The notes: generated by a model from the letters alone, not told the origin. 64,000 nucleotides of DNA from an uncultured bacterium (GCA_963825135.1 CAWGRW010000009.1:96001-160000), one strand, 5' to 3'; shown: positions 32,902-59,023, counted from the stretch's first letter. Program-made: numbers and translations.

Positions 32902-33021
32902 GCCCTGCTCCCTATACGCCCGTGCTGTACGTTTTAAGTCCGGCAATATTTTATACGGAAAAAATCGCGTCCCCAAGAAGGCGTCCCGCAAGGTGCGGAA
33001 GGGCCGCGTCGGATATAAGAC

Positions 33022-39739: not shown

Positions 39740-39789
39740 GGCACAGACGACTGGACTTGAACCCGCGGCCACCGGTTTGACAGGCCGGC
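39740..39789 (-). repeat. degenerate tRNA-Asp 3'-half copy 4 (att-like)
   Basis: ggcacagacgactggacttgaacccgcggccaccggtttgacaggccggc aligns to tRNA-Asp 56030-56079, including the GTC anticodon arm. Confidence 0.8.
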
Positions 39790-39900
39790 AGCCCTCCTTT
39801 CCCGGGCGGACGGAGTTTGTGTTTTACTCATCGTCACACTATAATAGATTTTATATATCAATATTCCTCATAATTCGCGACTTAAACAGGAGGCAATAAC

Positions 39901-40278
39901 ATGAGCGTGAAAATAATTAATGCTATTTTATTGCTTTTCGTATTATCCATACCCGCTTTGGCTGCGGATACCCCTAAGATGCCCGAGGCAGACACTCCGG
40001 ACATGCCGAAAGTGGACACTCCCGAGATGCCCAAAGCAGATACTCCGGACATGCCGAAAGTAGACACTCCCGAGATGCCGAAAGCGGATACTCCGGACAT
40101 GCCGAAAGTAGACACTCCCGAGATGCCCAAAGCGGATACTCCGGACATGCCGAAAGTGGATACTCCGGACATGCTGAAAGCGGATACTCCCGAGATGCCG
40201 AAAGTGGATACTCCGGACATGCCGAAAGTAGACACTCCGGACATGCCCAAGGCAGATAATCCGGCAGCACCCGAATAA
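39901..40278 (+). CDS. secreted protein made of about 12 [AV]DTP[DE]MPK octapeptide repeats
   Basis: Signal peptide, RBS AGGAGG; synonymous variation among repeat units supports coding. Confidence 0.85.
   Translation: MSVKIINAILLLFVLSIPALAADTPKMPEADTPDMPKVDTPEMPKADTPDMPKVDTPEMPKADTPDMPKVDTPEMPKADTPDMPKVDTPDMLKADTPEMPKVDTPDMPKVDTPDMPKADNPAAPE
39964..40251 (+). repeat. 24-bp coding tandem repeat (~12 copies)
   Basis: Units like gcggatactccggacatgccgaaa / gtagacactcccgagatgcccaaa. Confidence 0.9.
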
Positions 40279-40416
40279 AGATATGTGAAAGTACATCCAC
40301 TCTATCAAGTGTAATTAAGCTCAACCCTCACGCGAGCTGACGTGTCAGTCAATGTCTAATAGGGATTGGAAATACAGGCAGTGACGCGGGACATTTACCC
40401 CCCTCCCCCCCGATTT

Positions 40417-41540
40417 CTAGGAGTGATCGATCAGGTACACGATCTGATCCTGGCTATGCATAAACCTGTAGTAGATGGAATACCATATGAGGATATAGAG
40501 CAGAGGGAAGACGAACCTCGCCGCTACGTTCCCGTAATCCCATATCTTCAGCTTTCCGTGGTGCTTGAACAACTCGAAGCTTATGACCGAAACGATCGTA
40601 ACGCCGCACATCAGGTATCCGGACAATATTATCGCGTCCAGAATCGTCAAGTAAGACACGTTCGGGAAGAAGCTCGATACGACGAAATTAAACGCCACGG
40701 CGGTCAGCGCGAAAGCGGCCACGATGCTCACGCGCCTGTCGAGCGACTCCCTCTGCATCCAGAATACACAGGTCGAGAGCAGTATGAAAAAGCAGAACGG
40801 AAATAGTATCCTCCACAGATAATACGCGGTCCTCCTTTCCATAGGGACGTAAAAGCTGACGTACGACCAGTCATCGGTTTCCGATTCCCAGAGCCTCCTG
40901 ATACCCGCTGTAGACGACATCTCGTGGAGTATCCACTCGTCGTTCTGAAAGTTATGATTGACGCCCGTCCTCTCGCTCCAGACCTTATAGTCGAGCTCGT
41001 CCTTGGGATATGAAAAGGATTCGAATTCCATCCTGACCGTCTGAAGGTCAAACGGGAATTTCCGGAATTCGAGCGTCGTCGCGGTATCCGCCACGAACAC
41101 GGAGGAATATACGATGTCCCCGTCCGGGTGAATGAGGAGTCTCTTGTTTATCTCCGTTATTGCGCCCAGCTGATTGGTGATCTGCGGGTCGGGCCACCAC
41201 ATGTATTTTATGCGCTCCGCGACCTCGTCTCCCATAACTATGTCCGGTTTATGATCCGCGCTCTCGAACGCCTCCTGGGGTCTTTCCAGTGAAGGGACAG
41301 GGCGTACCGGGCGCTCAGCATCTGCTTCGGCTGATCGAGCTTGATAAAATCGAGCAAATAAAGTCCGACGTCCACGGTCGTAGGCCCCCCGGCGTTGGGC
41401 GGAGTATTGTACTCCTTATGCTGTTGGGAAGCGAGGCTCGCGGCCGGGAGCAGAAAGAGATATATAACCAGGAGCGCGCCCATAACATCGAGCGCTCTCA
41501 AAGCGGTTCTACGCCCGCCATCAAGCGGGGCCGAATTCAT
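40417..41540 (-). CDS. pentameric ligand-gated ion channel (GLIC/ELIC-like); frameshift near 41272
   Basis: PTTVDVGLYL...LSLHWKDPR, WWPD...NQ, FRKFPFDLQT loop, R...YYLW, four C-terminal TM helices; start uncertain. Confidence 0.85.
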
Positions 41541-41714
41541 ACTTATCACTGCGGGAAGCACCCCGCTCTCAAGGGTTGTGTAATCATTAGAACCTGACCG
41601 GCGCGCCGTAAAAAGCCGGACAGGTAAGTTTACAACCGAATATCGTCTAAAAGCAAAGCCCTTCCAGAGATAGGTAAATAATTTCCGAATGATAGGGAAT
41701 CTCCGGAAAGGAAA

Positions 41715-41750
41715 GGCCGGGACGACGGGGCTTGAACCCGCACCGTCCGG
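41715..41750 (-). repeat. degenerate tRNA-Asp 3' fragment copy 3 (att-like)
   Basis: ggccgggacgacggggcttgaacccgc matches the acceptor 3' strand and T-arm of tRNA-Asp. Confidence 0.8.
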
Positions 41751-41791
41751 TCCGGACCTCCAACAATCAGCTCAGGACCTAACTCCGGACC

Positions 41792-43048
41792 TCATAAGCG
41801 CTTGTCGGAAGATGTATTCCGGGCCATTAATTTACCTATCAATTCGAAATATGATTTCAGGTGGGATTCCGCGTTCCACTTCCTGATGTAGCATTCATAG
41901 CCCCTGGTCCCGAGCTCTTCCCTCAATGAAGGCTCGTCAATGAGCCTATCCATCGCGCTTACTATTTCATTCTCGGAGTTGTATACAAATCCGCCGCCGC
42001 TCTCAACTACAAGCTCGGGGAGCCCCCCGATGTTATTTACTATGACGGGCGTTTTCTCCCTGAAGGCTTCAAACACCACAAGAGTGGAGATCTCATAGTT
42101 TATAGAGGGCACGATGAGGGCAACAGCCTTTTTATATATATTCCTGAGCCCGGCAGGCGGCACATAGCCGGTCATATCGATGTTCAGGCTTCCAAGTGCA
42201 AGCCGGCGGATGTCACCCTCATACTCGCCTTTACCGGCAATCACGAGTCTAGCTTTTTTATATTTTCTGAATAAGGGTATCAGATTCTGTATGCCCTTTA
42301 ATTTCTCGATCCTTCCCACATATAAAAAGAAAGGCTCTTCAGGAACAGTTATGTCGTATTTGCCGCCCCGGCCCGTGGAATAGTTATCTTCAGGGATAAA
42401 ATTCGGGATGTGATGTATGGGTACCTTCAAGCCCTTTGTTTCATACAGCTTTTTGCTGAACATGCTCGGGCTAATTATTGCGTCAAGATGGTCTAAAGAC
42501 TTGTCGATGAGACCGGTATACCTCCAGAGCTGAGGCGGGCGGGCGTGGACGAGCTGGCACATCAGGCAGTGAGGCTTTTCGCACGGGGCACGGTCAAACC
42601 TCATCAGCACATGGGTCGGGCAGACGAGCCAGTATTCGTGCGTCGTGTAGAGCTTGACCCCCTCCCCGTATTCGATTACCTTCGGTCCCCCTACGAGCGA
42701 AATATTGTGGAAGTGTATGACGTCGAATCCCCGGTCCAGAATCTCCTTGATCCGCCCCGATTTGAAAAAGGGATATCCCGTTTGCTGTGTAGCGAGCGGA
42801 GAGAGAAAACCGTATTTGCTCTTTAGTCCGCAAACATCGACATTCGGGTGGTTTTCATATACGGCGTCCGGTTCTCCGCCGGCAAGCATTTCATAAGAAT
42901 CGATGCAGTGAATTACGGTTACATGATGGCCCCTCCGGGCGAGTTCGTTCGCGAGCTGCCAGACATAGATTGCATCACCCCCGAAGCTCCAGGGAGGGTA
43001 GAACGTCGTGATCATGCAGAACCTGAGATGCTTCGGCGGAGCGCTCAT
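41792..43048 (-). CDS. glycosyltransferase family 4
   Basis: ITTFYPPWSFGG, HEYWLVCP, YVGRIEKLKG, PSINYE...EAF...PVI..NIGGLPE. Confidence 0.9.
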   Translation of the reverse strand: MSAPPKHLRFCMITTFYPPWSFGGDAIYVWQLANELARRGHHVTVIHCIDSYEMLAGGEPDAVYENHPNVDVCGLKSKYGFLSPLATQQTGYPFFKSGRIKEILDRGFDVIHFHNISLVGGPKVIEYGEGVKLYTTHEYWLVCPTHVLMRFDRAPCEKPHCLMCQLVHARPPQLWRYTGLIDKSLDHLDAIISPSMFSKKLYETKGLKVPIHHIPNFIPEDNYSTGRGGKYDITVPEEPFFLYVGRIEKLKGIQNLIPLFRKYKKARLVIAGKGEYEGDIRRLALGSLNIDMTGYVPPAGLRNIYKKAVALIVPSINYEISTLVVFEAFREKTPVIVNNIGGLPELVVESGGGFVYNSENEIVSAMDRLIDEPSLREELGTRGYECYIRKWNAESHLKSYFELIGKLMARNTSSDKRL

Positions 43049-43806
43049 CTTCCACCCAGCCCGCGCCTGACAGTACGCGGGATATTGCGTAAAAAGATGT
43101 ACACGGGAAATGACTTCGTCGTAATGAGATTGAACAACCTTTCGCGCCTGAGATAATAGGCGTCCACGCGCTCGAGGGCGTAGATATCGCTTTCCCTCGT
43201 TAATAAACCGAGCTTGTCCGAACATGCGCATTCGAAGTTTCTTCCCGCGATTTCAAGACCTCTCCCGTCGTATCTCCCGTAGGGATAGGCAAACGATAAG
43301 ACGGGAGCGCCCAGATTGTTCTCGATTATTTCTTTAGACCCGGTTATCTCGCGTAGGACGCCGGACGTCTCAATCAGGGTGAGGTCAGGGTGTGTGATCG
43401 TATGGGCTCCGAAATCGATTCCCGCTTGCTTCATTTCCCTTATCTCCCCCCAGCTCAGCATCTCGACCCCGTTAAGCGGCGTCAAACGGTCGTCAGCGCC
43501 CGCCTTCTTCGAGTCGCCCCCGGCGAGGAATATAGTGGCGGTCATCCGATAGTTATCAAGTACGGGAAAAGCCTCCGCGTACACGCTCCCGTACCCGTCG
43601 TCGAAGGTAATGACAAATGATTTTTCGGGGAAGGGCCTCCGATCTCTGATCAGGGCCGCCGCGTCGCTCAGCCTGAGAGTCCTGTATCCGTTCCGGTAGA
43701 GTCTTTCCATCGAGCGTCCGAACATTTCCGGGCTGAAAGCTATAACCGTGCGGCTGTCGTCTATCCTGTGGAAAGTCAGGACCGGAATATAACCTGCGAT
43801 GCGAAT
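43045..43806 (-). CDS. polysaccharide deacetylase (NodB homology)
   Basis: IPVLTFH, ITFDDGY, GAHTITHPDL, FAYPYG; frame extends to an ATT at 43806 just after GGAGG, so the start is uncertain. Confidence 0.88.
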   Translation of the reverse strand: MRIAGYIPVLTFHRIDDSRTVIAFSPEMFGRSMERLYRNGYRTLRLSDAAALIRDRRPFPEKSFVITFDDGYGSVYAEAFPVLDNYRMTATIFLAGGDSKKAGADDRLTPLNGVEMLSWGEIREMKQAGIDFGAHTITHPDLTLIETSGVLREITGSKEIIENNLGAPVLSFAYPYGRYDGRGLEIAGRNFECACSDKLGLLTRESDIYALERVDAYYLRRERLFNLITTKSFPVYIFLRNIPRTVRRGLGGR

Positions 43807-43955
43807 TTCTCCTCCCCTGGAGTGTTCGGCATTTCCCGATCATCCGCGCGAGTATCCGCGGCAGGCGCTTTCATTAAATTAACGTCTCAACGGAGCCGGG
43901 GCCGAAATGAATGTCTATAGCGGATGACGGATTACTTTAATCTGGCGCTCGGAGA

Positions 43956-44300
43956 TCAATCAACCGTATCGTCCAAAGGCACCACCGCGACAAGCGCTGC
44001 TTCGTTTCCAAGAACACGCGTCGTATGACCCTCTCCCTCAGTGTCCAATATGACCCGGACGTCCCCCGCGCCAAATGTATGCCGGCTCCCGTCCCCGAAG
44101 CTATTTTCCAAACGGCCTGACAGAATGATGACGATCTGTCTGCGCGGGGCGGGGTGCCAGTCGAGGAACGTGCCCGGCGGAAATTCCTTAAAAAACATTG
44201 TCGATGCGGTCCTCATCGATGTCCAGAACGGATCGTGCGGCGGAAGCTCTTCGATGCGGGATCTGCCGTCTTCGCCCTTATAAATTCTGTATATGCCCAT
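43956..44300 (-). CDS. cupin domain protein
   Basis: DWHPAPRRQ..IILSG.LE...GDG...FGAGDV...DTEGEGH. Confidence 0.85.
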   Translation of the reverse strand: MGIYRIYKGEDGRSRIEELPPHDPFWTSMRTASTMFFKEFPPGTFLDWHPAPRRQIVIILSGRLENSFGDGSRHTFGAGDVRVILDTEGEGHTTRVLGNEAALVAVVPLDDTVD

Positions 44301-44310
44301 GTGTAAAGTT

Positions 44311-45195
44311 CTATCCGGCCGCTCGTATGTCGGTGCCTCTATTTCTAAGAAGAAGCTCCTGTTCATCCATCCCTTCAACGATCTCGAATGTGTCGATCGC
44401 AGGACCGAGATTCATAGACGCGACGCGTCCGAACATTATTCTCATCGCCTCGCGTACGTCCTCCGGTATGCGGAGGAAATCCTCTATTCTGAACATCTCG
44501 ACGTGTTCTTTCGCGAGCCCCCTCCCGAATTTGCTCGCGAAGGAATACACTTCCCGGGAATTTTCGCACCCCCACAGGAGAGAGCGCTGACAGGCGGCGG
44601 CAATATCGCGCGTCAGCCCCTCGCCAAGCCCCTTCCGGACAAGGTTGAGTCCCACGGGCAGAGGGAGCCCCGTGTCCTCACACCATGCGACACCAAGATC
44701 GCGCACACAGACGAGCCCCCTTTCCCGGAAGTGGATTAGCTCTTCGTGTATCATAACGCCCGCATCCACTTTGTCCCCGGCGATAGCGTCGACTATGGCG
44801 TCAAAGGGCATTTCAACAAGATCGATATCCGGACAATACATCAACGCAAGCACGCTGCCCGTCGTCGGATGCCCCCCCACCGCAACTCGCTTTCCCCGCA
44901 GGTCTTCGACCGTCTTGTATCGTTTTGAAACGAGTGCAGGGCCGAAATTCCTCCCCACGCTGTTCCCTACGCAAAGAATAAGGTACTTGTCGGCGACCTT
45001 GGGGTAGAAAACGGAAGAGACGGCTACGACGTCGTATTGAGCCTCGAGTGCCGCACGATTGAGATCGATGATATGATTCCGATAAAATACGGGCTTGCAG
45101 CCGTCGACGCCCAACGTTACTCGACCTTGCTCCCAGGCGTAGTAGTTGAACAAATCATCGCTGTCCGGCGTGTAGGCGATAGAAAGATCCTTCAT
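44311..45195 (-). CDS. MqnD-like protein (MqnA/MqnD periplasmic-binding fold)
   Basis: IAYTPDSDD.F.YYA, LNRAAL, GNSVGRNFGP, GVMIHE, DLG..W...TGLPLPVG. Confidence 0.8.
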   Translation of the reverse strand: MKDLSIAYTPDSDDLFNYYAWEQGRVTLGVDGCKPVFYRNHIIDLNRAALEAQYDVVAVSSVFYPKVADKYLILCVGNSVGRNFGPALVSKRYKTVEDLRGKRVAVGGHPTTGSVLALMYCPDIDLVEMPFDAIVDAIAGDKVDAGVMIHEELIHFRERGLVCVRDLGVAWCEDTGLPLPVGLNLVRKGLGEGLTRDIAAACQRSLLWGCENSREVYSFASKFGRGLAKEHVEMFRIEDFLRIPEDVREAMRIMFGRVASMNLGPAIDTFEIVEGMDEQELLLRNRGTDIRAAG

Positions 45196-45400
45196 TAACA
45201 CTCCCCCTCGCAATCTAAGAGCATTATTAATAGTTATGAATGAGAAATCAAACGACGTTAGATCATTATCCAAGGGTCTAAATAAGCATATATTGGTAAC
45301 ACATTAGTAATATTAGATATTCTCGGATATATTATCCCGGTTCATACATAGCGTCAAAATACTCGTTTAACGCTTGTACACGATAGTCTCAGATACCGCT

Positions 45401-46978
45401 ATGCTCGATGATTTGAAAATTTTCAGCAGGTACGCATGGGGGCTCAATGATTTCTTCCGTCACACCCTGCCCCCGGAAGTCTGCAGAAATATGATTGCCG
45501 GTCAGCTGCAAAACAGGGAGAAGTCCTTTTTGCGCATACTGAAGCTGGGGATTTACGATAATCCGAGAAGCCCGTATTTCAAGCTCCTAAGGCACGCGGG
45601 GATCGAGTACGGGGATTTTGTAAAACTTGTAGAGAGCGAAGGCGTTGAGGGATCACTCTCGAAAATCTACGACTCAGGCGTTTACCTCACTCTGAATGAA
45701 TTCAAGGGCAGGCAGCCCGTCCGTCGCCCCGGGCTCGAGTTCCCGACCCAGCCCCATGATTTCGACAACCCGTTCCTGGTTAAGTTTTATGAAGCAAGGA
45801 GCGGCGGGTCGAGGAGCAGGGGGAACCGCATCATTATCGACCTCGATCTGCTCACCCATGAGGCCGCCTATTTTCAATCATTTCTCGAGTCATTCGGGTT
45901 GACCGCGAATCCCCGGGGAGCATGGCGGGAGATACCCCCCGTGGCTGTAGGAATGAAACTCGCCCTCCGTTATTCCAAGCTCGGGAGTCCGCTCGAACGG
46001 TGGTTTTCGCCCACCGCGCTTTCGCTCGATTTAAAAAACCTCAAATTCTATATCTTCACGAGATACAGCATCCTTGCGAGCAGGATGTTCTCGAATCCCA
46101 TGCCCGTGCCCGAGCACGTGCCTCTGAACGAGGCTCACAAGGTCGCCGCCTGGCTCGAGACGAAGAGAAGCCAAGGCAGACCGGCCGTTCTGGATACTAA
46201 TGTGAGCGCCGCGGTCAGGGTATGCCTCGCCGCCCGGGAAAAGGGGTTCGACATATCAGGCACCTTCTTCCCGGGAGGAGGCGAACCGCTCACACCGGCA
46301 AAAGCGAAGATAATAAGAGAAACCGGCAGCAGGGCACACTGCCACTATTCGATGACGGAATTGGGCACCATGGGGCTTGCTTGCGCGAACCCCATACACC
46401 TGGACGAAGTCCACCTCCTCACCGATAAGATAGCGGTGATACAGCGTACGAAGGAAGTAGGGGCCGGCGGAGGGAAGGTCGGAGCCCTCGTATATACGTC
46501 TGTCCTTCCGCTCTGCCCGAAGCTCATGCTGAACGTGGAGAGCGACGACTACGGAGATCTCGAGTCGAGGGACTGCGGCTGCCGAATAGGAGAGCTCGGA
46601 TACGGTACGCACCTTTCCAATATCAGAAGCTATGAAAAACTTACGAGCGAGGGAGTGAGCTTCCTCGGGACAGAGTTGATCAGGGTAATCGAGGAGGTCC
46701 TGCCCGGCAGGTTCGGGGGCGGCCCTACAGACTACCAGTTCGCAGAGGAAGAGGTGGACGGGCTTCCGAAGGTAAATATAGTCGTGAGCCCTCGAGTGGG
46801 AGAGGTTGACGATAAAGCAGTCATCGACGCGGTAGTCAACGCTCTTATCCCCTATCCGGGGGGCGAGGTGATGGTCAGTCAGTGGCGCCAGGGTAACACC
46901 CTCCGCGTTATAAGAAGAGAGCCTTACACCACGTCGTCCGCGAAAATCCTGCCCCTGCATATCACTAAATTATCGTAG
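45401..46978 (+). CDS. PaaK/phenylacetate-CoA-ligase-like (adenylate-forming superfamily) protein
   Basis: RSGGSRS P-loop-like, GGEPLT, YSMTE.G, NVESDD.G, CGC, IRSYEKLT. Confidence 0.65.
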   Translation: MLDDLKIFSRYAWGLNDFFRHTLPPEVCRNMIAGQLQNREKSFLRILKLGIYDNPRSPYFKLLRHAGIEYGDFVKLVESEGVEGSLSKIYDSGVYLTLNEFKGRQPVRRPGLEFPTQPHDFDNPFLVKFYEARSGGSRSRGNRIIIDLDLLTHEAAYFQSFLESFGLTANPRGAWREIPPVAVGMKLALRYSKLGSPLERWFSPTALSLDLKNLKFYIFTRYSILASRMFSNPMPVPEHVPLNEAHKVAAWLETKRSQGRPAVLDTNVSAAVRVCLAAREKGFDISGTFFPGGGEPLTPAKAKIIRETGSRAHCHYSMTELGTMGLACANPIHLDEVHLLTDKIAVIQRTKEVGAGGGKVGALVYTSVLPLCPKLMLNVESDDYGDLESRDCGCRIGELGYGTHLSNIRSYEKLTSEGVSFLGTELIRVIEEVLPGRFGGGPTDYQFAEEEVDGLPKVNIVVSPRVGEVDDKAVIDAVVNALIPYPGGEVMVSQWRQGNTLRVIRREPYTTSSAKILPLHITKLS

Positions 46979-47097
46979 TGTAGATTCGATATAATATATT
47001 CACGGGTCGTTTCATGCCTCTCGATATCGTCTCCCCGCGAACCGGGATACCCCGAGCCGTCACTTGTTAGTCGGCAGGACCGGCTCTCTCCCGTCCA

Positions 47098-48079
47098 TTA
47101 TCTATATTCCCTGTCCAAAATCATACGCCTTAGTCTCGAATCCTCCTTCCCGACCGGATATCTCATGTTCTTCACCACAAGGTCCCCGAAATCCGTCCTT
47201 ATCGTTGAGACATACGCAAACATCATCAGGTGACGGGGTTTCACCGCGTTACGGCTGCCGTAGTGAAAACACACATTGCTGTCAATGAACAACACCGTCC
47301 CCGCGGGATAACAGAGCCTTATCAATTCACTCTCGGGAACGACCGCATACATCTTCTCGTCAGTAACTCGGTGACCGCCTTTCTTTGTATGATAATCACC
47401 GAGACCTGTCTCCGGCTTTCGCCGACACGGACTTGGGCAGGAAGCAAAAAGGCCCCCTCTCCATCGTGACCTCCCTCAAAACGACAATGACGTAGACCAT
47501 CGGCTTATCGTGGTAGTCAAGATGAAAGAGCTGGCTCTCTCTGGGCTGAGCGTCGGGGTTATCATCGAATTTATTCCAGGACTCTACAAGCCTCACGCCG
47601 TAGGGTCTGGAATAAGAAAGCGTGGGTATGAAGCCGAGGTAGCTGCATACGGTCGACAGCACGTCCGAAGAAGTCGCGAAATTGAGTATCGATGGGCACC
47701 TCGGGAAGTAATCTTCGATAAATATATCCTGAAAAAAAGGCCTCCATTTAAGATGCTGCTTTTCGCCGCCCCGCTCATCTATTATCTCTGCCGATTCCCT
47801 GAGGAGCTCCTCGAGATAAGGAAGCCTCCCTGAGGTATCGATAACCCATCCGTCCTTCATTTCGTTCACGGGCGCGACAGGGTTTCCGTTCTCTTTGATA
47901 AGCTCCGGGAAATTATCCCGATACTGCCGCTTCCTGTACTCATGATACTTCCCGAACCTGAGACTGTTATAGGCCCTGGCAATCGCCGTAGTGCTATTCA
48001 CCCCCAGGGCGCTCATGTAATTCCTCTCGAGGATTTTGGCGGCAGGTTTGAATACCGCGTCCATGGCTTTACCGATCAT
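47098..48079 (-). CDS. PhyH-like Fe(II)/2OG dioxygenase, copy 2; +1 insertion near 47412
   Basis: SQLFHLDYHD...GPFCFLP...FHYGSR; comparison with the adjacent paralog shows one extra G. Confidence 0.75.
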
Positions 48080-48136
48080 CTCTCCTCCCGCGCCGCCGCT
48101 TGATTCCCAGACGGACCGGCGCTATTCCGCTCCTTA

Positions 48137-49114
48137 TCAATATTCCTTGTCCAGCACCATACGCCTCAGCTTTGAATCCTCCTTCCCGACCGGATATCTC
48201 ATGTTCCTGAGCACTATATCGCCGAAATCCGTCCTAATTGTTGAGACATACGCAAACATCATCAGGTGACGGGGTTTCACCGCGTTACGGCTGCCGTAGT
48301 GAAAACACGCGCTGCTGTCGATGAACAACACCGTCCCCGCCGGATAACAGAGCCTTATCAATTCGCTCTCGGGAACGACCGCATACATTTTCTCGTCAGT
48401 AACACGGTGACCGCCCTTCTTTGTATGGTAATCAACGAGACCTCTCTCGGCTTTCGCCGACACTGACTTGGGCAGGAAGCAGAAGGGCCCCCTCTCCATC
48501 GTGACATCCCTCAAAACGACAATTACATAAACCATCGGCTTATCATGATAGTCGAGATGAAAGAGCTGGCTCTCTCTCGGCTGAACATTAGGCGTATCAT
48601 CGAATTTATTCCAGGACTCGATGAGCCTCACGCCGTAAGGTTTGGAATAAGAAAGCGTGGGTATGAAGCCGAGGTAGCTGCATACCGCCGACAGCACGTC
48701 AGAAGAGGTTGCGAAATTGAGTATAGATGGGCACCTCTGGAAATAATCGTCGGTAAATAAATCCTGGAAAAATGGTCTCCTGTAAAATTGATGCTTTTCG
48801 CCGCCCCGCTCATCTATTATCTCTGCCGATTCCCTGAGAAGCTCCTCGAGATAAGGAAGCCTCCCCGAGGTATCGATAACCCATCCGTCCTTCATTTCGT
48901 TTACGGGCGCGACAGGATATCCGTTCTCGGCAATCAGCTCGGAAAAGTTTTCCCTATACCGCCTCTTCCTCTGCTCGTGGCTGCTTCCGTGCCTGAGACT
49001 GTTGTAGGCCCTGGCAATCGCCGTAGTATTATTCACCCCCAGGGCGCTCATGTAATTCCTCTCAAGTGCCCTGGCAGCCGGTTTGAATACCGCGTCCATG
49101 GTTTTACCGATCAT
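48137..49114 (-). CDS. PhyH-like Fe(II)/2OG dioxygenase, copy 1
   Basis: HxD (HLD)...H (FHYG)...R facial-triad pattern; RBS GGAGG. Confidence 0.78.
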   Translation of the reverse strand: MIGKTMDAVFKPAARALERNYMSALGVNNTTAIARAYNSLRHGSSHEQRKRRYRENFSELIAENGYPVAPVNEMKDGWVIDTSGRLPYLEELLRESAEIIDERGGEKHQFYRRPFFQDLFTDDYFQRCPSILNFATSSDVLSAVCSYLGFIPTLSYSKPYGVRLIESWNKFDDTPNVQPRESQLFHLDYHDKPMVYVIVVLRDVTMERGPFCFLPKSVSAKAERGLVDYHTKKGGHRVTDEKMYAVVPESELIRLCYPAGTVLFIDSSACFHYGSRNAVKPRHLMMFAYVSTIRTDFGDIVLRNMRYPVGKEDSKLRRMVLDKEY

Positions 49115-49276
49115 TTCTCCCCTCCTCCTGCGTGAGCAGACCGCCGTGATCCTCTACGCACGCGCGTTATGGAATGTTGAAAAATAATACAAGATTATGA
49201 ATAAATTGAGAAGTAAGGGTAAAAGTTTGCTATGGGATAACAATCTGTGCCGGCGGCTGTAACGGCAATAAAAACC

Positions 49277-49314
49277 GGCGGCGACGGGGCTTGAACCCGC
49301 GACCTCCGGTGTGA
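49277..49314 (-). repeat. degenerate tRNA-Asp 3' fragment copy 2 (att-like)
   Basis: ggcggcgacggggcttgaacccgcgacctccggtgtga; similarity ends within the anticodon loop. Confidence 0.85.
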
Positions 49315-49384
49315 GGGTCTATTGCACCGGGAAAACCAAACAGCGTCTCAACCCGGCCAAAAGGGGGCATATCCGCGCCGAGGC

Positions 49385-50341
49385 CTACTCCAGCTTCGTC
49401 CATGTTTTATCAGGATTGAATTCTTTTACGCCTAGCGCGATTTTTTCGGTGTCCTCTCCCAGGTCTTTTTGATAGATCGCCCCGTTCTGGTTGACTAGAA
49501 ACGTCATTACGCCGCTCGAACCGTACTTCGCGGGATAGGCCAGGAGAGCGAATCCCCCAACCATGTAGCCGTTGATCAGGTAGCTGTATTTCCCCCCGGG
49601 CGCGTTGGGCCCCTGGGAGGTCAGGATGCGGTAGTAGTAGCCGTGATAAGGTACGGGTTCGGGGTGGGCCTTGGCAATATTGTAGCCCTCCGCCGTTGCG
49701 CCGGCCATCAAAGGGCCTATCGGACTCTCTTCTTCGCCCTTCGCCGCATCCCAATAGAGCCCATCGTGCTTGCCGGGCGTGCTAAGGAACTTTCTGGCGT
49801 ACTCGAGCACTCCATTGCCGTTCCTGTCCTCACTCGCGTAATCCCGCTCGGCGCTGACGAAGTTGGCGCAAACTGATATGGTATTGAGCTCATTTTTCCC
49901 GATCCTTCTGTCAAGCATCTCTTCCATCCCCGACGCCGTATCGAAGTGCCATTTATCACCGTCCTTTACTAAGGGGACGGGGAACGGCCAGTCGTCGTTT
50001 CCGATGCTGAGGATTGCTTTCCCGTCCTTCGTATAATCGATGCGGTTCATCTCATCGGTTCTTTTGACAAAGTTTTGCATCGCGATTTCGTCGGCCTTTT
50101 GATCTCCCGAAGAGACCAGATCCTCGCTGCCGGGGCCGAAGATCTCTAAAAGCTGTTCCGTGCTCTCCGATTTCGCTGCGGCGATAAGAGCCTTCACCGC
50201 GTCCTCGGGCGAGGAAAAGACCTGCTGCTGAACCGTGTCGGCATGAGAATCAATCGAAAGAATCCATAGTAAGGCAAGCGTGAATGTCAAAAATAATGAT
50301 GGAAGGTATCTTGATAAGCTTCTTTTGGTCTTATTAGCCAT
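49385..50341 (-). CDS. DUF2950 family protein
   Basis: WPFPVPLVK, RRIGKNEL, GKHDGLYW, SPIGP, PYHGYYYRIL, YPAKYGSSGVMTF. Confidence 0.92.
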   Translation of the reverse strand: MANKTKRSLSRYLPSLFLTFTLALLWILSIDSHADTVQQQVFSSPEDAVKALIAAAKSESTEQLLEIFGPGSEDLVSSGDQKADEIAMQNFVKRTDEMNRIDYTKDGKAILSIGNDDWPFPVPLVKDGDKWHFDTASGMEEMLDRRIGKNELNTISVCANFVSAERDYASEDRNGNGVLEYARKFLSTPGKHDGLYWDAAKGEEESPIGPLMAGATAEGYNIAKAHPEPVPYHGYYYRILTSQGPNAPGGKYSYLINGYMVGGFALLAYPAKYGSSGVMTFLVNQNGAIYQKDLGEDTEKIALGVKEFNPDKTWTKLE

Positions 50342-50385
50342 TATGATTTCCCCCTGTATTGTATGCTGATAAATGATGGAACCCC

Positions 50386-51693
50386 TTATCTCCTTTTACC
50401 TCTGTTGCTGCCCTTGCTGCCTCTCTGGCTGCCGCTTCTGCTTGTGCTGCGCTGATAGCTCTCACGGCTCGATCTCCCGCGATTACTATCGGCCCGGGTC
50501 TCGCTGCGGCTCCCGTAGCCGCTGAACGCATCGGAGCGGTCTCTCGACCCGGTGCTTCTGTTCTCCCCGGTCCTCGCGCGATCCCTTGTGCTTGATGCGG
50601 ATGAGCCCGTATTCTTTCTATCCTCAATCCCTGACTTGCTCGAACCCGTTTGACGGCTCTCACGCCCGACCTTGCTCTCCTGTTTCGTCGCCTGACCGCG
50701 GTCATAACCGCTGAAGGCCCCGTTATCTCCCCTGTCTTGCAGCCCTTTCTCGACTGAGGCTGTCGTCGGTCTTTTTTCACCATACCCTTTATACTCGCGG
50801 TTGGACACGCCCTGATTTCCTTTCTGGTACCGCTCGGCAACTGTATTATTCTTGTATTCGACCCCTCTCCTGTGCTCGGGGTTGTGCTGCCAACGGCGTT
50901 CCCCCGCATTGTTTCCGTTGATGTTGACCTTATTCCCGATATTAACATCCCCTCTGTTGATATTTACATTTGTATTCCCGTGCCCGTATCCCCCTCCCCA
51001 GTAGCAGCAATTGTTATGACCCCAGTCGAAACTGGCGAAGGTGGCGCCTACCGCTACTCCGAGACCGAACGAAAAGACGCTCGACGCGACGTATCCGGGA
51101 GGATATATGGCATAGGGAGGATATGCGGGATAGTACCAGGTGCCGTATACGACCGCCGGGTTATACGCGGGGACATAGACGACCTGCGGGTCGGCGGGTT
51201 GTATGATTATAGTTTCCTTTTCCTTAACAACGACCTGCTCCTTGGTCGATTTCAGATTTCCCGAGGAGTCCGCTCTTTCCCTGAGCACCTGCACCGCGTC
51301 CATCACTTCCTGCTGCTGCGCGAGGAACGCATCGCCGAGGCTCGTAGTCCAGTCGAGATTCTCATTCATCATTGAAACCACGTCCGGAAATTCGACGAGG
51401 GATTTTACGCTATCGTCCCAGTCCTGTTTCTGGGCTTCCGCGAACAATTGCTCTCCCTTGAGATTCTTATTCTTATCCAGCCAGCGCGCGGCCTGCACGA
51501 CCTCCAGGGGATACGTTGACGCCATCAGGACCTGGGCCAGGAGCGTATCGGGATAAAGCGCAATCGGAGCCAGCAATTGCTCGAGTTCCGCGGAGCTCAG
51601 TCGTCCGGACGGGTCTTCCTGGGCGAATGAACACCTTGAGCCTAGGGTGCTAAATAAGAGAATGATAACAACGCCATACTTGATTACCCGCAT
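50386..51693 (-). CDS. DUF3300 family protein
   Basis: LEQLLAPIALYPD.LLAQVLMASTYP, WDDSVKSL, VYVPAYNP..VYG.W, WQHNPEHRRGV; low-complexity tail. Confidence 0.92.
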   Translation of the reverse strand: MRVIKYGVVIILLFSTLGSRCSFAQEDPSGRLSSAELEQLLAPIALYPDTLLAQVLMASTYPLEVVQAARWLDKNKNLKGEQLFAEAQKQDWDDSVKSLVEFPDVVSMMNENLDWTTSLGDAFLAQQQEVMDAVQVLRERADSSGNLKSTKEQVVVKEKETIIIQPADPQVVYVPAYNPAVVYGTWYYPAYPPYAIYPPGYVASSVFSFGLGVAVGATFASFDWGHNNCCYWGGGYGHGNTNVNINRGDVNIGNKVNINGNNAGERRWQHNPEHRRGVEYKNNTVAERYQKGNQGVSNREYKGYGEKRPTTASVEKGLQDRGDNGAFSGYDRGQATKQESKVGRESRQTGSSKSGIEDRKNTGSSASSTRDRARTGENRSTGSRDRSDAFSGYGSRSETRADSNRGRSSRESYQRSTSRSGSQRGSKGSNRGKRR

Positions 51694-52167
51694 TATCCCA
51701 CCTCGTGGAAAATGATTTATAAAGACATCAAGTGTGAAATCCCCTCGATGTCGACTTGATATAAACATCCTTGATACACTGATTATCGCTTTCGGGCTGA
51801 GCCGGGCCCGGGCATAAGCCCCGCGGCTCGAGCATCATTTATAAAACAGTCTGTTTCGCATCTTTTATCAGAATTGACATAAATTATATGATAATTATCA
51901 TAAATTGCACGGAAAGCAATGAAAGAATGTTACCATAAACCATGGCAATTCATAACATTAGATACAACCCTTTTTCCGCTTTAATCCGGGTAAAATCGAG
52001 GCCCGGCCCTCGACCGGCCGGATCATTGCACGAAAGCCCCGGCACATTTGCTATGCTTTCTTCAAAAGGCGCATCAAGGGAGAACGGTTATATAGACGTG
52101 TTCCGACAGTTCTTGATCCTCTATTCCACAAATGCTGAACAGAAGTTACGATCCAACTCGGGACATT

Positions 52168-52276
52168 GTCATTGGGCATCAACCATTTGGCAAGTGATTG
52201 AGATATCGTTAGGGCACGATAGGCCAGTTCGATGGGATACAGGGTAGAATTTCTCAACTTTTAAATCGAGTCTCAC
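52168..52276 (-). pseudogene. truncated SRPBCC/AHSA1-domain gene remnant
   Basis: GTG overlapping the ArsR stop: MRLDLKVEKFYP/YPIELAYRALTISQSLAKWLMPND, after which similarity is lost. Confidence 0.55.
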
Positions 52277-52617
52277 AGCTCACTTCCTTTTTCATCAAAT
52301 AAGTGCTGAAGCCTGTCAAGGCTGCTTTCCCAAAATCGCCTGTAATGTGTGAGCCATTCATAAACCTCTCGTAAAGTATCGGGCCTCGCCTGATAAATAC
52401 GAAAGCGCCCTTGTTTGCGCCGAGATACCAACCCGGCTTCGGCAAGAATCTGCAAGTGTTGAGAGACGGCCTGAAAAGAAATATCAAAGTGACTTGCCAG
52501 GTTGTGAACGGGCATTTCTTCTTGCTGCAACAGATCAAGTATTTTTCGGCGATTGGTATCAGCAATCGCATGAAATACATCAGATTTTTGAGTTGTAACG
52601 ATTTCTGAATTCCGCAT
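52273..52617 (-). CDS. ArsR/SmtB-family transcriptional regulator
   Basis: DVFHAIADTNRRKILDLL, SFQAVSQHLQIL.EAGLV...QGR.RIY. Confidence 0.92.
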   Translation of the reverse strand: MRNSEIVTTQKSDVFHAIADTNRRKILDLLQQEEMPVHNLASHFDISFQAVSQHLQILAEAGLVSRRKQGRFRIYQARPDTLREVYEWLTHYRRFWESSLDRLQHLFDEKGSEL

Positions 52618-52628
52618 GAAATGATTAT

Positions 52629-52691
52629 ATTCAAGAAGATGCTTGAATGTCAAATAAGGGCGTGCTACGATATTCAATCAATCACTTAAAT
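52629..52691. promoter_or_regulatory. two candidate ArsR operator boxes
   Basis: ATTCAAG-N6-CTTGAAT (52629-52648) and ATTCAAT-N6-CTTAAAT (52672-52691) between the divergent arsR and DUF899 genes. Confidence 0.6.
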
Positions 52692-52708
52692 GAGGAGGTC
52701 TGATCTTC

Positions 52709-53434
52709 ATGAAAAAAGAATCCGGCGGCGGCATCAATAACCACATTGTGGTTAACCATGAGGAGTGGCTTACTGCGCGTATGTCGCTCCTCGCAAAGGA
52801 GAAAGAATTTACCCGGTTGCGTGACCAGCTCAGCCAAGAGCGGAGAAACCTGCCGTGGGAAGAAGTCGAGAAGGAGTATATTTTTGAGGGTTCGAACGGT
52901 AAGCAAAACTTGGGAGAGCTCTTTGATGGTAGAAGCCAATTGATCGTCTATCACTTCATGTTTGGCCCGAGCTGGGTGGCAGGATGCCCCCACTGCTCCC
53001 GTTGGGCTGACAGTTTCAATGGAATAATTATTCACTTGAACCAGCGCGATGTAACCATGATCGCCGTGTCACGGGCGCCTTACACCAGGTTAGCGGCATA
53101 CCAGAAGCGAATGGGCTGGAATTTTAAGTGGGTCTCATCACTTGAGACGGATTTCAATTTTGATTGCCATGTGTCGTTTACACCGGAAGAGCTGGCCGGG
53201 AAAAAAACATTCTATAACTTCACAATGGAAGATCAAGATAGTTCTGAGCGGGAAGGGGTCAGCGTATTTTACAAGGACTCGGCGGGTAAAGTGTTTCACA
53301 CCTACTCGACTTATGCGCGCGGCATCGACTTATTGAACGTGGATTATAATTACCTTGACCTTGTGCCCAAGGGCCGGGATGAGGGAGATCGTGGACCCTT
53401 TTGGGTGCGCCGCCACGATGAATACGGTCTATAA
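52709..53434 (+). CDS. DUF899 thioredoxin-like protein
   Basis: EEWL.AR..LL.KEKE.TR, LF.GRSQLIVYHFMF, GCPHCS, HTYSTYARG, WVRRHDEY. Confidence 0.93.
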   Translation: MKKESGGGINNHIVVNHEEWLTARMSLLAKEKEFTRLRDQLSQERRNLPWEEVEKEYIFEGSNGKQNLGELFDGRSQLIVYHFMFGPSWVAGCPHCSRWADSFNGIIIHLNQRDVTMIAVSRAPYTRLAAYQKRMGWNFKWVSSLETDFNFDCHVSFTPEELAGKKTFYNFTMEDQDSSEREGVSVFYKDSAGKVFHTYSTYARGIDLLNVDYNYLDLVPKGRDEGDRGPFWVRRHDEYGL

Positions 53435-53604
53435 CCGGTAATCGGGCAGCATCGACAGGGGGACCGAGAAATGATCGTAAAAAGCTATAGACGCCAGATC
53501 CGAGATCGCGGCAGGTGCTCTCAATTCCAGGCATTACTACTCGTCAAACCGGCAAATGGAAACGAATAATCTACCCGGTCAATTGTTATTAAGGAATAAG
53601 TACC

Positions 53605-53643
53605 GGCGGGGACGACGAGGCTTGACCCCGCGACCTCTGGCTT
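53605..53643 (-). repeat. tRNA-Asp 3' fragment copy 1 (att-like; 36/39 identical to the intact gene)
   Basis: ggcggggacgacgaggcttgaccccgcgacctctggctt versus ggcggggacgacgggacttgaacccgcgacctctggctt (56030-56068). Confidence 0.9.
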
Positions 53644-53799
53644 CGGAGGGCTTTAGTATAGTTGTATGAATTATTACCCTTTTGTATAGAGCGTACCGCT
53701 CCCCATTAGTCAAGCTCGGATTAACGCGGAGTGATGAACCGTAAAAATGTTAAAAATTTAAATGCCATTATTATCCGGTCTTATGCCCTGCTCCGGCAC

Positions 53800-54174
53800 T
53801 CAGTCCGTTCCCCAAGGGTTGTCGATCACGATGCGCCAGGATCCGTCTTCCTGACGACGCAGAACATCCGCGGATTTTCCCGCCAGCTTCTCCGGTTCGC
53901 CGTCCGGCCCGGTTCCGGTGAATGACCAAACCGAGATTACGAGGGCCAGACCGCTCGCCTCAAGAACCCTTGTCACTTTGAGATCGAGTGTGCCCTTCAT
54001 CGCGATGAAACCGGCCAGCGCTTCACGGATACCCGGTATGCCGCGGGCGAGGTTCCCGGGCTGAGCCGCAAGAGCGGCGTCAGGCTCATAAAGAGTCATG
54101 AGAGTGTCGAGATCGCCGGCGTTAATTCCGTCAACTACAGATTTGAGGACTTGCTCGGGTGTTCCTCTGGACAT
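53800..54174 (-). CDS. NTF2-like (YybH/SnoaL/DUF4440) protein
   Basis: INAGDLDTLMTLYEPDA...ADVLRRQEDGSWRIVIDNPWG. Confidence 0.88.
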   Translation of the reverse strand: MSRGTPEQVLKSVVDGINAGDLDTLMTLYEPDAALAAQPGNLARGIPGIREALAGFIAMKGTLDLKVTRVLEASGLALVISVWSFTGTGPDGEPEKLAGKSADVLRRQEDGSWRIVIDNPWGTD

Positions 54175-54411
54175 ACCATCCTCCCGCTATGTTAAGTTTT
54201 TAATCGTCGTGTAGAGGCCTGACTACCAATTAGACTGCCTAGATTGCTAATCCCGTTTTACGCATGAAGCTTTTCTATTGCTATTCTCTCACAAGTAAGA
54301 AGTTCTTGTCAAGCAAAGGTATAGGTCCACTACATATGAGAGATGGAGTAAGATAATAAAAAGAAGCTGACCGGAAGACTTACTGTGCGGGGTTTTTGCA
54401 GTTCGGGAAAA

Positions 54412-55590
54412 TTAATACTTTTTAACTACAACAGCATCTCCATCGAAACCTATGAATCTGTCGACACAACTGCCGCATACCGGACAATAAACTTCTATAT
54501 TTCCCTGGTGACCGGGTATAACGCGTTCTTCGATCACCAGATTCTTAAGACACCAATAGCATACATATTCACGTTTAATAACATTCATATCTTCGGTCTC
54601 GTGTGGCGGAATTGTTCCGATCTGAAACGCTTGAATGTCCGGAGAAGACGGCTTAGAAATCGTAACTAACTCAACGCCGTCCGAGAACACGCTTACCGGG
54701 CCGTCTTCCGATACCGTAAGTACGACTGATTTAGCTTCTTCATAAGAGTATCTTAGAGCTGAGGTATGACGAGTTCCTCTATACTCGGGGATCATCTCCT
54801 TAGTCGATTCCTTGCTGTCTAATTTAATTTTCGTACATCCAAGTATCCCGTCCTGGTTGAAAAATGTAGCGCCGTCAACTTGCGACAATAAATTTGAAAT
54901 CAGTATTTTATGTTCATCACTCAAAATAGATAGAGTAATCGGAGCAAGGTCCTCAAGGGGTTCAACTTTTGGAATTTTAGACCCCGTCTCGTCGTCAATG
55001 AAATATATAATGGTCGCTCCAATATTTCTTGGACTCAAATAATAGTATGCAAATTCGAGAAGAGCCGATAGTATTTCATCTTGCATTTGCGGTACATGTA
55101 ATTTAATTTTTGTTATGAGAGGATATATGCATTGTATTTTTAACCAATTTCTATTGTGATGTATGTATAGATTGTTATTATGGAACAACTTTGTTTTTAA
55201 GGCATTATCTCTTTGCAGTATCAAAGCGTTTAAATCTTGATGCAATCTTAATAATTCGTATTCTGAACCATAAATTTCGTTCAAAAATATAAGCCCAATC
55301 AGGTTATCTCGTTCATATAACAAATATGATTTATATCCATCTGATAATATTCTTAATGTGGAAGAGTCCAATGTCTTGTTGAATATTATTTTATAGGACT
55401 TTAAGTTCTCGATATTTTCTACAAAAATCACACCGAAGGTTGGTATTAGATTTTCATGCAGCGTAGGATATACACAATAACTTAGCTCTTCCCAAAATAA
55501 TTCCATATCTTTCCATTTGTTGTCTATATCTATTTGATTTAACTCTAACTCATGCTTCAAAATAGAAATTTTTGTATTATTGTCCATCAT
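54412..55590 (-). CDS. DAC (DisA_N diadenylate cyclase) domain protein with C-terminal CxxC...CxxC motif
   Basis: IGATI, VDGA, GTRHTSA, VSEDGPVS; CYWC...CPVC; visibly AT-rich. Confidence 0.82.
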   Translation of the reverse strand: MMDNNTKISILKHELELNQIDIDNKWKDMELFWEELSYCVYPTLHENLIPTFGVIFVENIENLKSYKIIFNKTLDSSTLRILSDGYKSYLLYERDNLIGLIFLNEIYGSEYELLRLHQDLNALILQRDNALKTKLFHNNNLYIHHNRNWLKIQCIYPLITKIKLHVPQMQDEILSALLEFAYYYLSPRNIGATIIYFIDDETGSKIPKVEPLEDLAPITLSILSDEHKILISNLLSQVDGATFFNQDGILGCTKIKLDSKESTKEMIPEYRGTRHTSALRYSYEEAKSVVLTVSEDGPVSVFSDGVELVTISKPSSPDIQAFQIGTIPPHETEDMNVIKREYVCYWCLKNLVIEERVIPGHQGNIEVYCPVCGSCVDRFIGFDGDAVVVKKY

Positions 55591-56028
55591 GGATCGATAT
55601 CAATCTTTGTTCTTGTGGATGAATTATTACAAATCCCGTCAATTTGAATAAAGCTGTTATTATTTTAACCCTCTCGGATTATTATTAGAATAGGCCAAAA
55701 TCCTTTTACTGCATATATACCCGTACCTTCTAACTTATTTGTTGTTAAAGACTAATTCATATATATAATTCTTTTTCTCAGCATGTCTTTCAGCCGCATA
55801 TACGGCCACCCCGGCTATTCAATGCAAGTATACCTCAAACCATTGCCGGAACCTTTCTTTGTTCTCGTCCTGCGGCCGCCGGAGTTTTTCGGTACACCGG
55901 AGAGTATTCGTGTCTTCTTCGGTATTCGGACAGTGTGGAGCCTGTCCGTAGTTAGAATAGCGCCAACAAAAGTGCTAACACTTTTACCCTGGTTTCCATT
56001 TGTCCAGCCGGGAATGTTCATTAGTGAC

Positions 56029-56106
56029 TGGCGGGGACGACGGGACTTGAACCCGCGACCTCTGGCTTGACAGGCCAGCGTTCTAACCGGACTGAACTAC
56101 GTCCCC
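56029..56106 (-). tRNA. trnD: tRNA-Asp (GTC)
   Basis: GGGGACG..CGTCCCC acceptor stem, CTGGC-CT-GTC-AA-GCCAG anticodon arm, TTCAAGT T-loop, encoded CCA. Confidence 0.98.
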
Positions 56107-56123
56107 GCAAGTAATTTATGGAG

Positions 56124-56200
56124 TGGTGGGCGGTACAGGATTTGAACCTATGACATCCTGCTTGTAAGGCAGGCGCTCTCCCATGCTGAGCTAACCGCCC
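56124..56200 (-). tRNA. trnV: tRNA-Val (TAC)
   Basis: GGGCGGT..ACCGCCC acceptor stem, CCTGC-CT-TAC-AA-GCAGG anticodon arm, TTCAAAT T-loop, encoded CCA. Confidence 0.98.
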
Positions 56201-56504
56201 ACTCCGAATTTGAGTAGTTCCGCACCTAAATCCGAACCGTAAGGGAGAAATATATAACTGAATTTTAAGCTTTTGTCCACACACATAGTGTGATTCTATG
56301 ATCCCTCCCATCCGCTCAGTTCCGCCGACATTTCGCACATTTGCGACTACCCGCCGTCATTTCTGTCCTTATGCGCAGAACCTGCGCTCGTATACGATTC
56401 CTCCCCGGCTCATCCGCCCAGCCGGCATATGCGGCAATTTCAAATGTCGGCAGCGACTCGCCGTCCCGTACATTACCACAGAAACACCCTGAGTCGTCCG
56501 GGCC

Positions 56505-58991: not shown

Positions 58992-59023
58992 GGCATGTCT
59001 CCTTAACTATCCGGATTCACATC

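Follow-up and report, generated by a model that had tools for sequence, protein, structure and literature searches.

A tandem array of four integrase-free islets beside a tRNA-Asp gene of an uncultured bacterium, probably built by serial site-specific integration

The 64-kb window analyzed here (GCA_963825135.1 CAWGRW010000009.1:96001-160000, 64,000 nucleotides from the genome of an uncultured bacterium) carries on its minus strand the genes tig-clpP-clpX-lon, then tRNA-Val and then an intact tRNA-Asp(GTC) gene (Table 1). A search with the 78 nt of this tRNA-Asp as query (blastn-short) returns four extra matches in the window, every one of them downstream of the gene and, like it, on the minus strand. 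These displaced copies, called relics 1 to 4 from the gene outward, divide the adjoining DNA into four gene modules (M1 to M4), and we find it probable that the region is a tandem array of four islets laid down serially by site-specific integration into tRNA-Asp. A reading made from the sequence alone (the sequence-only reading) had described four co-oriented degenerate copies of the tRNA 3' half, all intergenic and two of them ending at the anticodon loop, which cut the region into modules of 2.4, 4.3, 7.5 and 1.9 kb. Shuffled sequences and a de novo repeat search agree with blastn-short that the copies are real; all four lie between open reading frames (ORFs), local alignment places their starts at or beside the loop, and the module sizes are correct.

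The tRNA extents of the relics were set by local alignment, in which the anticodon occupies tRNA positions 36-38. Relic 4 spans the whole anticodon arm onward, and all four relics are 3' parts of the gene that begin in or at that arm; the starts (39, 37, about 41 and 28) agree with the anticodon loop, which like the T loop/junction is a known sublocation of crossover. The 14-mer core GCGGGTTCAAGYCC, with up to 2 mismatches allowed, has 6 matches in the window against 1.2 expected, a number reached by none of 100 shuffles; 5 of the 6 are the tRNA and its four copies, and the remaining match, inside lon, is unrelated. A de novo repeat search recovers the copy family unaided, with spacings of 1975, 7559, 4331 and 2425. 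A profile built from the copies detects nothing more of the family in the 64 kb (the copies' own profile scores are circular, the profile having been trained on them), and core 14-mer and profile locate no additional relic between 33 and 39.7 kb. The anticodon stem reads CCGG in relics 2-4 and CCAG in the tRNA, and relic 4 has a compensating change on the other strand. The sequences of the displaced halves suggest derivation from a different tRNA-Asp or phage-type attachment site (attP) allele, and not random decay alone.

That the relics are decayed whole tRNA-Asp duplicates, left from a former array into which genes were inserted later, or a dispersed repeat that resembles a tRNA, is extremely improbable. 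The local alignment of relic 3 can be stretched over most of the tRNA, but a significant tRNA 5' half is found next to none of the relics: between 203 and 1919 of 2000 shuffles reach the observed score, with 324 of 2000 for relic 3. Rfam calls no relic a tRNA at E<=10. All copies share one orientation and keep within the 16 kb 3' of the gene, and relic 2 has as its ortholog a 3' stretch of the single, intact and live tRNA-Asp of a related locus (L003). Whole-tRNA pseudogenes were accordingly rejected on the missing 5' halves and the missing Rfam tRNA call.

Related loci were obtained through a Lon search of GTDB species genomes, which gave 80 loci, anchored on lon with 10-kb flanks; in colinear genomes the flanks extend only to about window position 46.5 kb. 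The nearest loci are metagenome-assembled genomes (MAGs) labelled Thermodesulfobacteriota or Candidatus Dadabacteria, with Lon identities to the window of 95% (L003), 94% (L005), 89% (L001), 88% (L002), 82% (L006), 81% (L007) and 77% (L008). The order lon-tRNAVal-tRNAAsp is conserved, and tRNA-Asp lies on the lon strand in 48 of the 80 loci. Over tig-lon, nucleotide identity is 95.1% between L003 and L005, 88.7% and 89.1% between the window and each of them, and about 75% to L001, and the core-gene grouping is ((L003,L005),window),L001. About 1.2 kb of extra DNA lies between lon and tRNA-Val in L003 (12430-13872), absent in the window and L005.

M3 is present in the window, L003 and L005 alike, and the M3 core common to L003 and L005 stands there directly after tRNA-Asp; the order in L003 is tRNA-Asp, dioxygenase, MqnD-like gene, cupin, second dioxygenase, 534-aa gene and then the 266-aa gene that in the window lies beyond the array. 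M1 and M2 are absent from both loci, and M1 from L001 as well. Window 49309..48131 is colinear and unbroken with L003 14007..15197 at 84%, an alignment that runs from about tRNA position 42 through a 160-nt flank into the dioxygenase gene. On the other side, window 56221..56027 aligns to L003 13852..14045, and the 39 nt at L003 14007-14045 match both the live window tRNA and relic 2. Because 39 nt of the tRNA are thus duplicated around 6.7 kb, M1+M2 is an insertion with target duplication, the signature of left and right attachment sites (attL/attR). Within this insertion, relic 1 and the next 24 nt resemble the L005 tRNA-Asp and its flank (86% over 65 nt; flank alone, 0 of 1000 shuffles). The match of the flank means that relic 1 was once the end of the live gene and hence that M2 and M1 arrived as two separate events. 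M1 is also compositionally foreign, with a GC content of 30-45% against about 56%. The sequence-only reading had placed the newest modules next to the tRNA, and the absence of M1+M2 from L003 and L005, together with the low GC of M1, bears this out.

M4 occurs in the window and in L005 (window 41709..40387 against L005 19861..21182, 83%), the homology beginning at window 41709, and is absent from L003. Since L003 and L005 are sisters, the presence of M4 in both L005 and the window makes it ancestral and its absence from L003 a loss. The L003 spacer is like the decayed L005 relic 3 in its left part and like relic 4 in its right part, and contains GTCGTCCCCGC; judged from this sequence, the M4 loss is a relic-to-relic deletion that left a hybrid of relics 3 and 4. 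The orthologous relics 3 and 4 of L003 and L005 are badly decayed, below BLAST and profile detection, which indicates that the outer border is old and that relics drift; relic 4 is the oldest border. For M1+M2 and for M4, both compared with L003, we thus find the absence from a relative, with breakpoints at the tRNA and its fragment, by which Islander recognizes an island.

Tyrosine integrases occur at the same tRNA-Asp in relatives. A Pfam scan limited to ORFs of 200 aa or longer that start no more than 3 kb downstream of tRNA-Asp covered 119 of 324 listed ORFs from 35 loci (L001, L003 and L005 were scanned separately). In L008 it finds a tyrosine integrase of 367 aa (Phage_integrase, 1.4e-30) on the minus strand, 0.84 kb from tRNA-Asp and abutted by a 68-aa ORF in the position of an excisionase; the same scan finds an IS66 transposase in 1 of the 35 loci (L065). 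With the L008 integrase as query, tblastn detects C-terminal pieces in L006 (65% over 79 aa) and L002 (63% over 40 aa), located 100-120 nt from tRNA-Asp and running into contig ends. These three loci, of the 80, also have an exact 17-mer 72-74 nt after tRNA-Asp. The shared integrase family and 17-mer mean that 3 of the 7 nearest loci carry one integrase-bearing element family at this site. Over the first ~25 nt after the tRNA, L005 resembles L008 (4 of 1000 shuffles) and the relic 1 flank does so weakly (19 of 1000), with 55 pairs tested; the likeness hints that M2 and the L005 insert may have begun as elements of a family related to that of L008.

In the window itself no integrase, transposase or phage gene was found, as the sequence-only reading had stated. 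None of its 65 ORFs belongs to an integrase, recombinase, transposase or phage family; none of 149 six-frame stretches of at least 45 aa between 39400 and 56120 matches such a recombinase, transposase or phage family in Pfam at E<=0.01; and tblastn with the L008 integrase gives no window match at E<=10. An integrase was not found in the orthologous M3 and M4 of L003 and L005 either.

An alternative that takes these negatives at face value is that the modules are integrase-free and cis-mobilizable, with the tRNA as a platform comparable to the attI site of integrons and a tRNA-Asp-specific tyrosine integrase encoded elsewhere; a helper island or chromosomal integrase would capture, excise and reshuffle cargo segments flanked by attachment (att) sites. 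This is the idea of the sequence-only reading in its more defensible form; we consider it rather unlikely, and the data do not require it. It accords with the lack of a recombinase trace in all four modules, all 149 six-frame stretches and the orthologous M3 and M4, and there is a precedent in the 15 ssrA islands of Dehalococcoides that McMurdie et al. describe as having no integration module (PMC3146451). The loss of M4 in L003 exactly from relic to relic is what excision would give, but RecA would be just as likely to produce a deletion of this kind. A cognate-looking integrase family does occur in the clade, in other species (L002, L006 and L008), where it also offers a conventional source of recombinase; none is seen in the 64 kb. 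In L056 a 5.3-kb integrase-free insert lies between tRNA-Asp and a near-perfect repeat, but the parallel is not clean, as this repeat continues for 154 nt beyond the tRNA and is placed at a contig end. The relics, moreover, are decayed, relic 1 being without the invariant T54 and one T-stem pair. Relic 4 is about 64% identical between window and L005 by a hand count, and the adjoining spacer on the promoter side looks less changed, a sign against selection on the site. M3 and M4, finally, have stayed where they are since a time before the window lineage parted from L003 and L005. If modules were mobilized in trans, the cis-mobilizable or 'hitcher' idea would extend to tRNA-targeting tyrosine integrases and would help to explain the spread of small cargo islets. 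A bolder version, less probable again, has the tRNA-Asp beside lon, in this uncultured Thermodesulfobacteriota/Dadabacteria-like lineage, as a standing capture site at which small integrase-free modules would be inserted, excised (as with M4 in L003) and stacked by a tRNA-Asp-specific tyrosine integrase acting in trans, with helpers like the L002, L006 and L008 elements. Such a site, if real, would be a tRNA-anchored functional analogue of accretion in integrons and cis-mobilizable elements (CIMEs), in an array that never carried the enzyme.

The L056 insert belongs to a distant MAG (Lon 59%; 12562-18283) and contains a RES-Xre toxin-antitoxin pair; a recombinase is found in 0 of its 46 six-frame stretches. 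Its repeat is 205 nt long and begins at the anticodon arm, with 5 differences between the copies; the contig ends 280 nt away from it, and just before the distal copy there are three GACGGCTTTT motifs, a triplet that is not significant (12 of 200 shuffles). The insert may be an integrase-free element, a homologous insertion or an assembly artefact. With a repeat of this length at a contig end, we downgraded it as a clean second integrase-free case and do not count it as support.

Repeats of this kind could also come from Campbell-type insertion by RecA, in which circular or incoming DNA with a tRNA-Asp stretch from another host enters without any site-specific recombinase. The L056 repeat is longer than the usual att identity block, and the flank likenesses of relic 1 to L005 and of relic 2 to L003 show homology past the tRNA. 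However, homologous exchange would give arbitrary end points, and the starts of all four relics lie at the anticodon loop or arm or beside it, a place that the Islander survey gives, in its account of sublocations, as a crossover position of tyrosine integrases (PMC4383910); this common end makes RecA insertion unlikely. About 45 nt is also short for efficient RecA exchange, and an integrase family is present at this very site in three relatives. We judge a RecA origin to be highly improbable.

Serial integration, the explanation that we favor, would begin with a circular element, which a tyrosine integrase whose attachment site is centred on the anticodon would recombine with the tRNA gene. 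On the element there would be a second copy of the tRNA sequence, running from the anticodon arm through to the 3' end, and this copy would restore the tRNA gene as the old 3' part was pushed to the far end of the insert. With each new insertion next to the intact tRNA, older modules and scars would move outward. The order would then be M4 followed by M3, both before the split from L003 and L005, and M2 followed by M1 in the window lineage, with M4 later deleted in L003 via recombination between its flanking relics. We infer that a tyrosine integrase of the kind found at this tRNA in relatives made these particular insertions.

Whether each island brought an integrase of its own is a separate matter. 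We lean towards the view that each did and later lost it by deletion; in its favor are the decayed state of the relics, the long residence of M3 and M4, the presence of pseudogenes in the array and the hints from the flanks. The opposite view, that the modules never had an integrase and were moved by a helper, seems to us clearly less likely; it is supported by the lack of remnants in the four modules and their orthologs and by the exact relic-to-relic loss of M4.

Several observations weigh against serial integration. There is no integrase remnant in any of the four modules or in the orthologous M3 and M4 of L003 and L005, and random deletion would hardly be expected to remove four integrases completely and spare both flanking scars each time. 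An integrase lies within 3 kb of tRNA-Asp in only 1 of the 35 Pfam-scanned loci (L008). A 24-mer containing the shared 17-mer has 0 window matches at up to 3 mismatches. Identity to the tRNA is about 92, 85, 86 and 86% for relics 1-4: the copy nearest the tRNA is the best conserved, as the sequence-only reading had it, and the others do not fall steadily with distance. The T loop reads CAAGCC in relics 1-3 and CAAGTC in the live tRNA, and the shared C would require related attP sites or gene conversion. The view is also small, at 64 kb of one genome.

Further points of this kind come from gene-content differences inside M3 that do not break at the scars. The GT4 and deacetylase genes (41792-43725) are found only in the window, the 534-aa gene is inverted in the window relative to L003 and L005, and the tandem duplication of the dioxygenase breaks away from the relics. 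L003 and L005 each have one dioxygenase ortholog and a second dioxygenase, a 55% paralog, that is missing from the window, and an unrelated GT4 gene follows the L005 tRNA directly with no relic behind it. Since these differences ignore the relics, ordinary rearrangement also shapes the region. The expectation that gene content would break at the repeats therefore stands for M1+M2 (tRNA and relic 2) and for M4 (relics 3 and 4) and fails for several differences elsewhere.

Table 1 Position of the tRNA genes, relics, modules and neighboring features (window coordinates unless a locus is named)
Feature	Position	Strand	Basis and remarks
tig-clpP-clpX-lon	56565-62225	-	Pfam
lon	56565-58991	-	tRNA pair just downstream
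tRNA-Val(TAC)	56124-56200	-	ARAGORN; Rfam 69.3 bits; upstream partner of tRNA-Asp, same order in relatives
tRNA-Asp(GTC), intact, 78 nt	56029-56106	-	ARAGORN; Rfam 75.5 bits; probable integration target, attL side of array
Module 1 (M1), 2.4 kb	53644..56028	-	DACNK-DAC protein and SnoaL/NTF2-like protein (Pfam)
DACNK-DAC protein (M1)	54412-55590	-	Pfam
SnoaL/NTF2-like protein (M1)	53800-54174	-	Pfam
Relic 1	53605..53651	-	blastn-short 53605-53643, 36/39, E 4.8e-9; tRNA positions 39-77
Module 2 (M2), 4.3 kb	49322..53604	both	five ORFs (Pfam); absent from L003, L005
DUF899 (M2)	52709-53434	+
ArsR (M2)	52273-52677	-
Unnamed ORF (M2)	51942-52247	+
DUF3300 (M2)	50386-51768	-
DUF2950 (M2)	49385-50341	-
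Relic 2	49275..49321	-	blastn-short 49282-49306, 24/25, E 1.8e-5; tRNA positions 37-75, 33/39
Module 3 (M3), 7.5 kb	41764..49274	both	seven genes (Pfam)
PhyH-like dioxygenase (M3)	48137-49114	-
Broken dioxygenase duplicate (M3)	47098-48079	-	split into 227-aa and 84-aa ORFs
Unnamed 534-aa gene (M3)	45374-46978	+
MqnD-like (M3)	44311-45273	-
Cupin (M3)	43956-44378	-
Polysaccharide deacetylase (M3)	43045-43725	-
GT4 (M3)	41792-43231	-
Relic 3	41715..41763	-	blastn-short 41719-41741, 22/23, E 2.8e-4; tRNA positions about 41-77; also 25/28
Module 4 (M4), 1.9 kb	39789..41714	both	ion-channel gene and repeat protein (Pfam, NCBIfam)
Pentameric ligand-gated ion-channel gene (M4)	40417-41561	-	Neur_chan_LBD; NCBIfam LGIC_1; frameshifted
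Secreted tandem-repeat protein (M4)	39901-40278	+	small, signal peptide
Relic 4	39740..39788	-	blastn-short 39746-39786, 36/41, E 1.8e-5; tRNA positions 28-71, 38/44
First gene beyond array	38761..39561	-	266 aa; 87% aa identity to L003 and L005, there next to relic 4
DUF4301 gene	31612-32991	-	23 kb downstream of tRNA-Asp, same strand
AllH-/AllG-like cluster	3894-12604	-	see text
Integrative element at tRNA-Asp, L002	5752-5918		integrase convergent with tRNA
Integrative element at tRNA-Asp, L006	6524-6793		integrase convergent with tRNA
Integrative element at tRNA-Asp, L008	9897-11968		integrase convergent with tRNA

The contents of the modules required some revision of the sequence-only reading. 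The two dioxygenases that it had listed in M3 are a tandem duplication of a PhyH-like gene (47098-49114; 87% at the amino-acid and 87-90% at the nucleotide level), the distal copy of which is broken, and the 'ligase' has no Pfam or NCBIfam support and is listed as the unnamed 534-aa gene. The ion-channel gene of M4 is frameshifted in the window into ORFs of 107 and 272 aa; L005 has an intact ortholog of 381 aa, with 83% identity over the C-terminal part. The neighboring repeat protein has about 12 copies of (A/V)DTP(D/E)MPK, encoded by a 24/48-bp tandem repeat at 39977-40247, and the ~600-nt stretch 39779-40386 that contains its gene is absent from L005. The 266-aa gene beyond relic 4 has no Pfam or NCBIfam match. 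A role of the modules as defence islets was considered and dropped: PADLOC gave generic winged helix-turn-helix matches for the ArsR protein only, and NCBIfam gave the DAC protein one anti-phage match, far below cutoff. In L054, a Desulfocapsa MAG, a DACND-DACNH-DAC protein (5300-6856) comes directly after tRNA-Asp and is 39% identical over 74 aa to the DACNK-DAC protein of M1.

A DUF4301 gene stands directly after tRNA-Asp in L009, L010, L012 and L014 (about 12500-14030), and the window has one as well. Because this gene adjoins tRNA-Asp in four distant relatives and lies 23 kb from it in the window, the whole 33-56 kb stretch, the gene for a 1325-aa PAS histidine kinase included, may have accumulated by accretion and since lost its older scars. 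Farther off, AllH- and AllG-like oxamate carbamoyltransferase subunits, a carbamate-kinase-like AA_kinase and a CoA-ligase-like protein form a cluster that looks like a purine/allantoin-type fermentation module unrelated to the array.

As it stands, the locus represents ordinary island biology and no new mechanism. Its value is that of a clean, well-resolved record: at a single tRNA, in a lineage for which there are metagenomes only, it preserves four dated layers of serial insertion, together with a target duplication resolved to the nucleotide and a deletion from relic to relic. It also exposes a blind spot, given that an island finder that insists on an integrase would overlook the array entirely. 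Our literature searches returned nothing describing this lineage or this locus.

Tandem stacking without an integrase has several known forms. Integrative mobile elements exploiting Xer (IMEX) lack an integrase, use the host XerCD recombinase at dif and stack in tandem, each leaving a degenerate copy of the site. The array resembles them in being a tandem of integrase-free elements at one chromosomal site, and differs in that they have dif as target and a housekeeping enzyme as recombinase; no XerCD-like host enzyme is known for tRNA-Asp. Its modules also have the structure of CIMEs, namely att-type flanks (degenerate, 85-92% identical to the tRNA) and neither integrase nor transfer genes. In the accretion-mobilization of Streptococcus thermophilus, associated with Pavlovic (2004) and Bellanger (2011), CIMEs reportedly have intact att sites that recombine with those of a helper integrative and conjugative element. 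CIMEs, too, are att-flanked segments that lack integrase and transfer genes and are stacked in tandem where integration occurs; unlike them, the array has decayed sites and no helper in 64 kb, and is known from its sequence alone.

The sequence-only reading had proposed an integron-like array. Integrons and clusters of attC sites lacking integron-integrases (CALINs), as described in PMC11389934, consist of ordered captured genes and repeated recombination sites, and CALINs have no integrase. Like them, the region is a one-ended, ordered series of captured genes with repeated recombination sites in between, but the comparison fails on structure: there is no intI/attI platform, the repeats are tRNA halves and not attC hairpins, and the modules, unlike cassettes, which are mostly single promoterless ORFs in one orientation that each end in an attC imperfect palindrome, have 2-7 genes on both strands, their own ArsR regulator and presumably their own promoters.

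Comparable too are the ssrA islands of Dehalococcoides (McMurdie et al. 2011, PMC3146451), which are in tandem downstream of one small-RNA gene, have direct repeats of its 3' end and form a strain-variable region. In that paper's description of the arrays, the serine recombinase DsiB is present in 16 islands, the repeat is 20 bp and the target is the tmRNA gene, and the 15 islands without an integration module are proposed to be cis-mobilizable or fixed. Here, in contrast, tRNA-Asp is the target, and the relics, centred on the anticodon, measure about 45 nt; a tyrosine integrase is seen only in relatives, and no member of the array keeps an enzyme, unlike the Dehalococcoides arrays as that account presents them.

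A close match is also given by the tRNA-gene (tDNA) islands of Islander and TIGER. Islander (Hudson, Lau & Williams 2015, PMC4383910) works, in its statement of principle, from a regenerated target and a displaced fragment, and the four relics show this mark, an intact tRNA with co-oriented displaced fragments of the same tRNA at the far end of each island. The site is anticodon-centred, as are 2083 sites among the 3919 islands tabulated in the survey, the newest module lies beside the tRNA, M1 has foreign composition, and modules are absent from relatives exactly at the tRNA. Two features set the array apart: the modules are islet-sized (1.9-7.5 kb), and none of the four contains the integrase that the survey, in its treatment of arrays, requires of every member. 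Arrays of 3 or more are rare there, with 4 among the 3919 islands, and tRNA-fragment scars are also already in print (PMC9897764). Tandem tDNA islands, tRNA-fragment scars and arrays with integrase-less members have thus all been published; what is unusual here is that all four members are integrase-free, in an array of rare, four-deep stacking.

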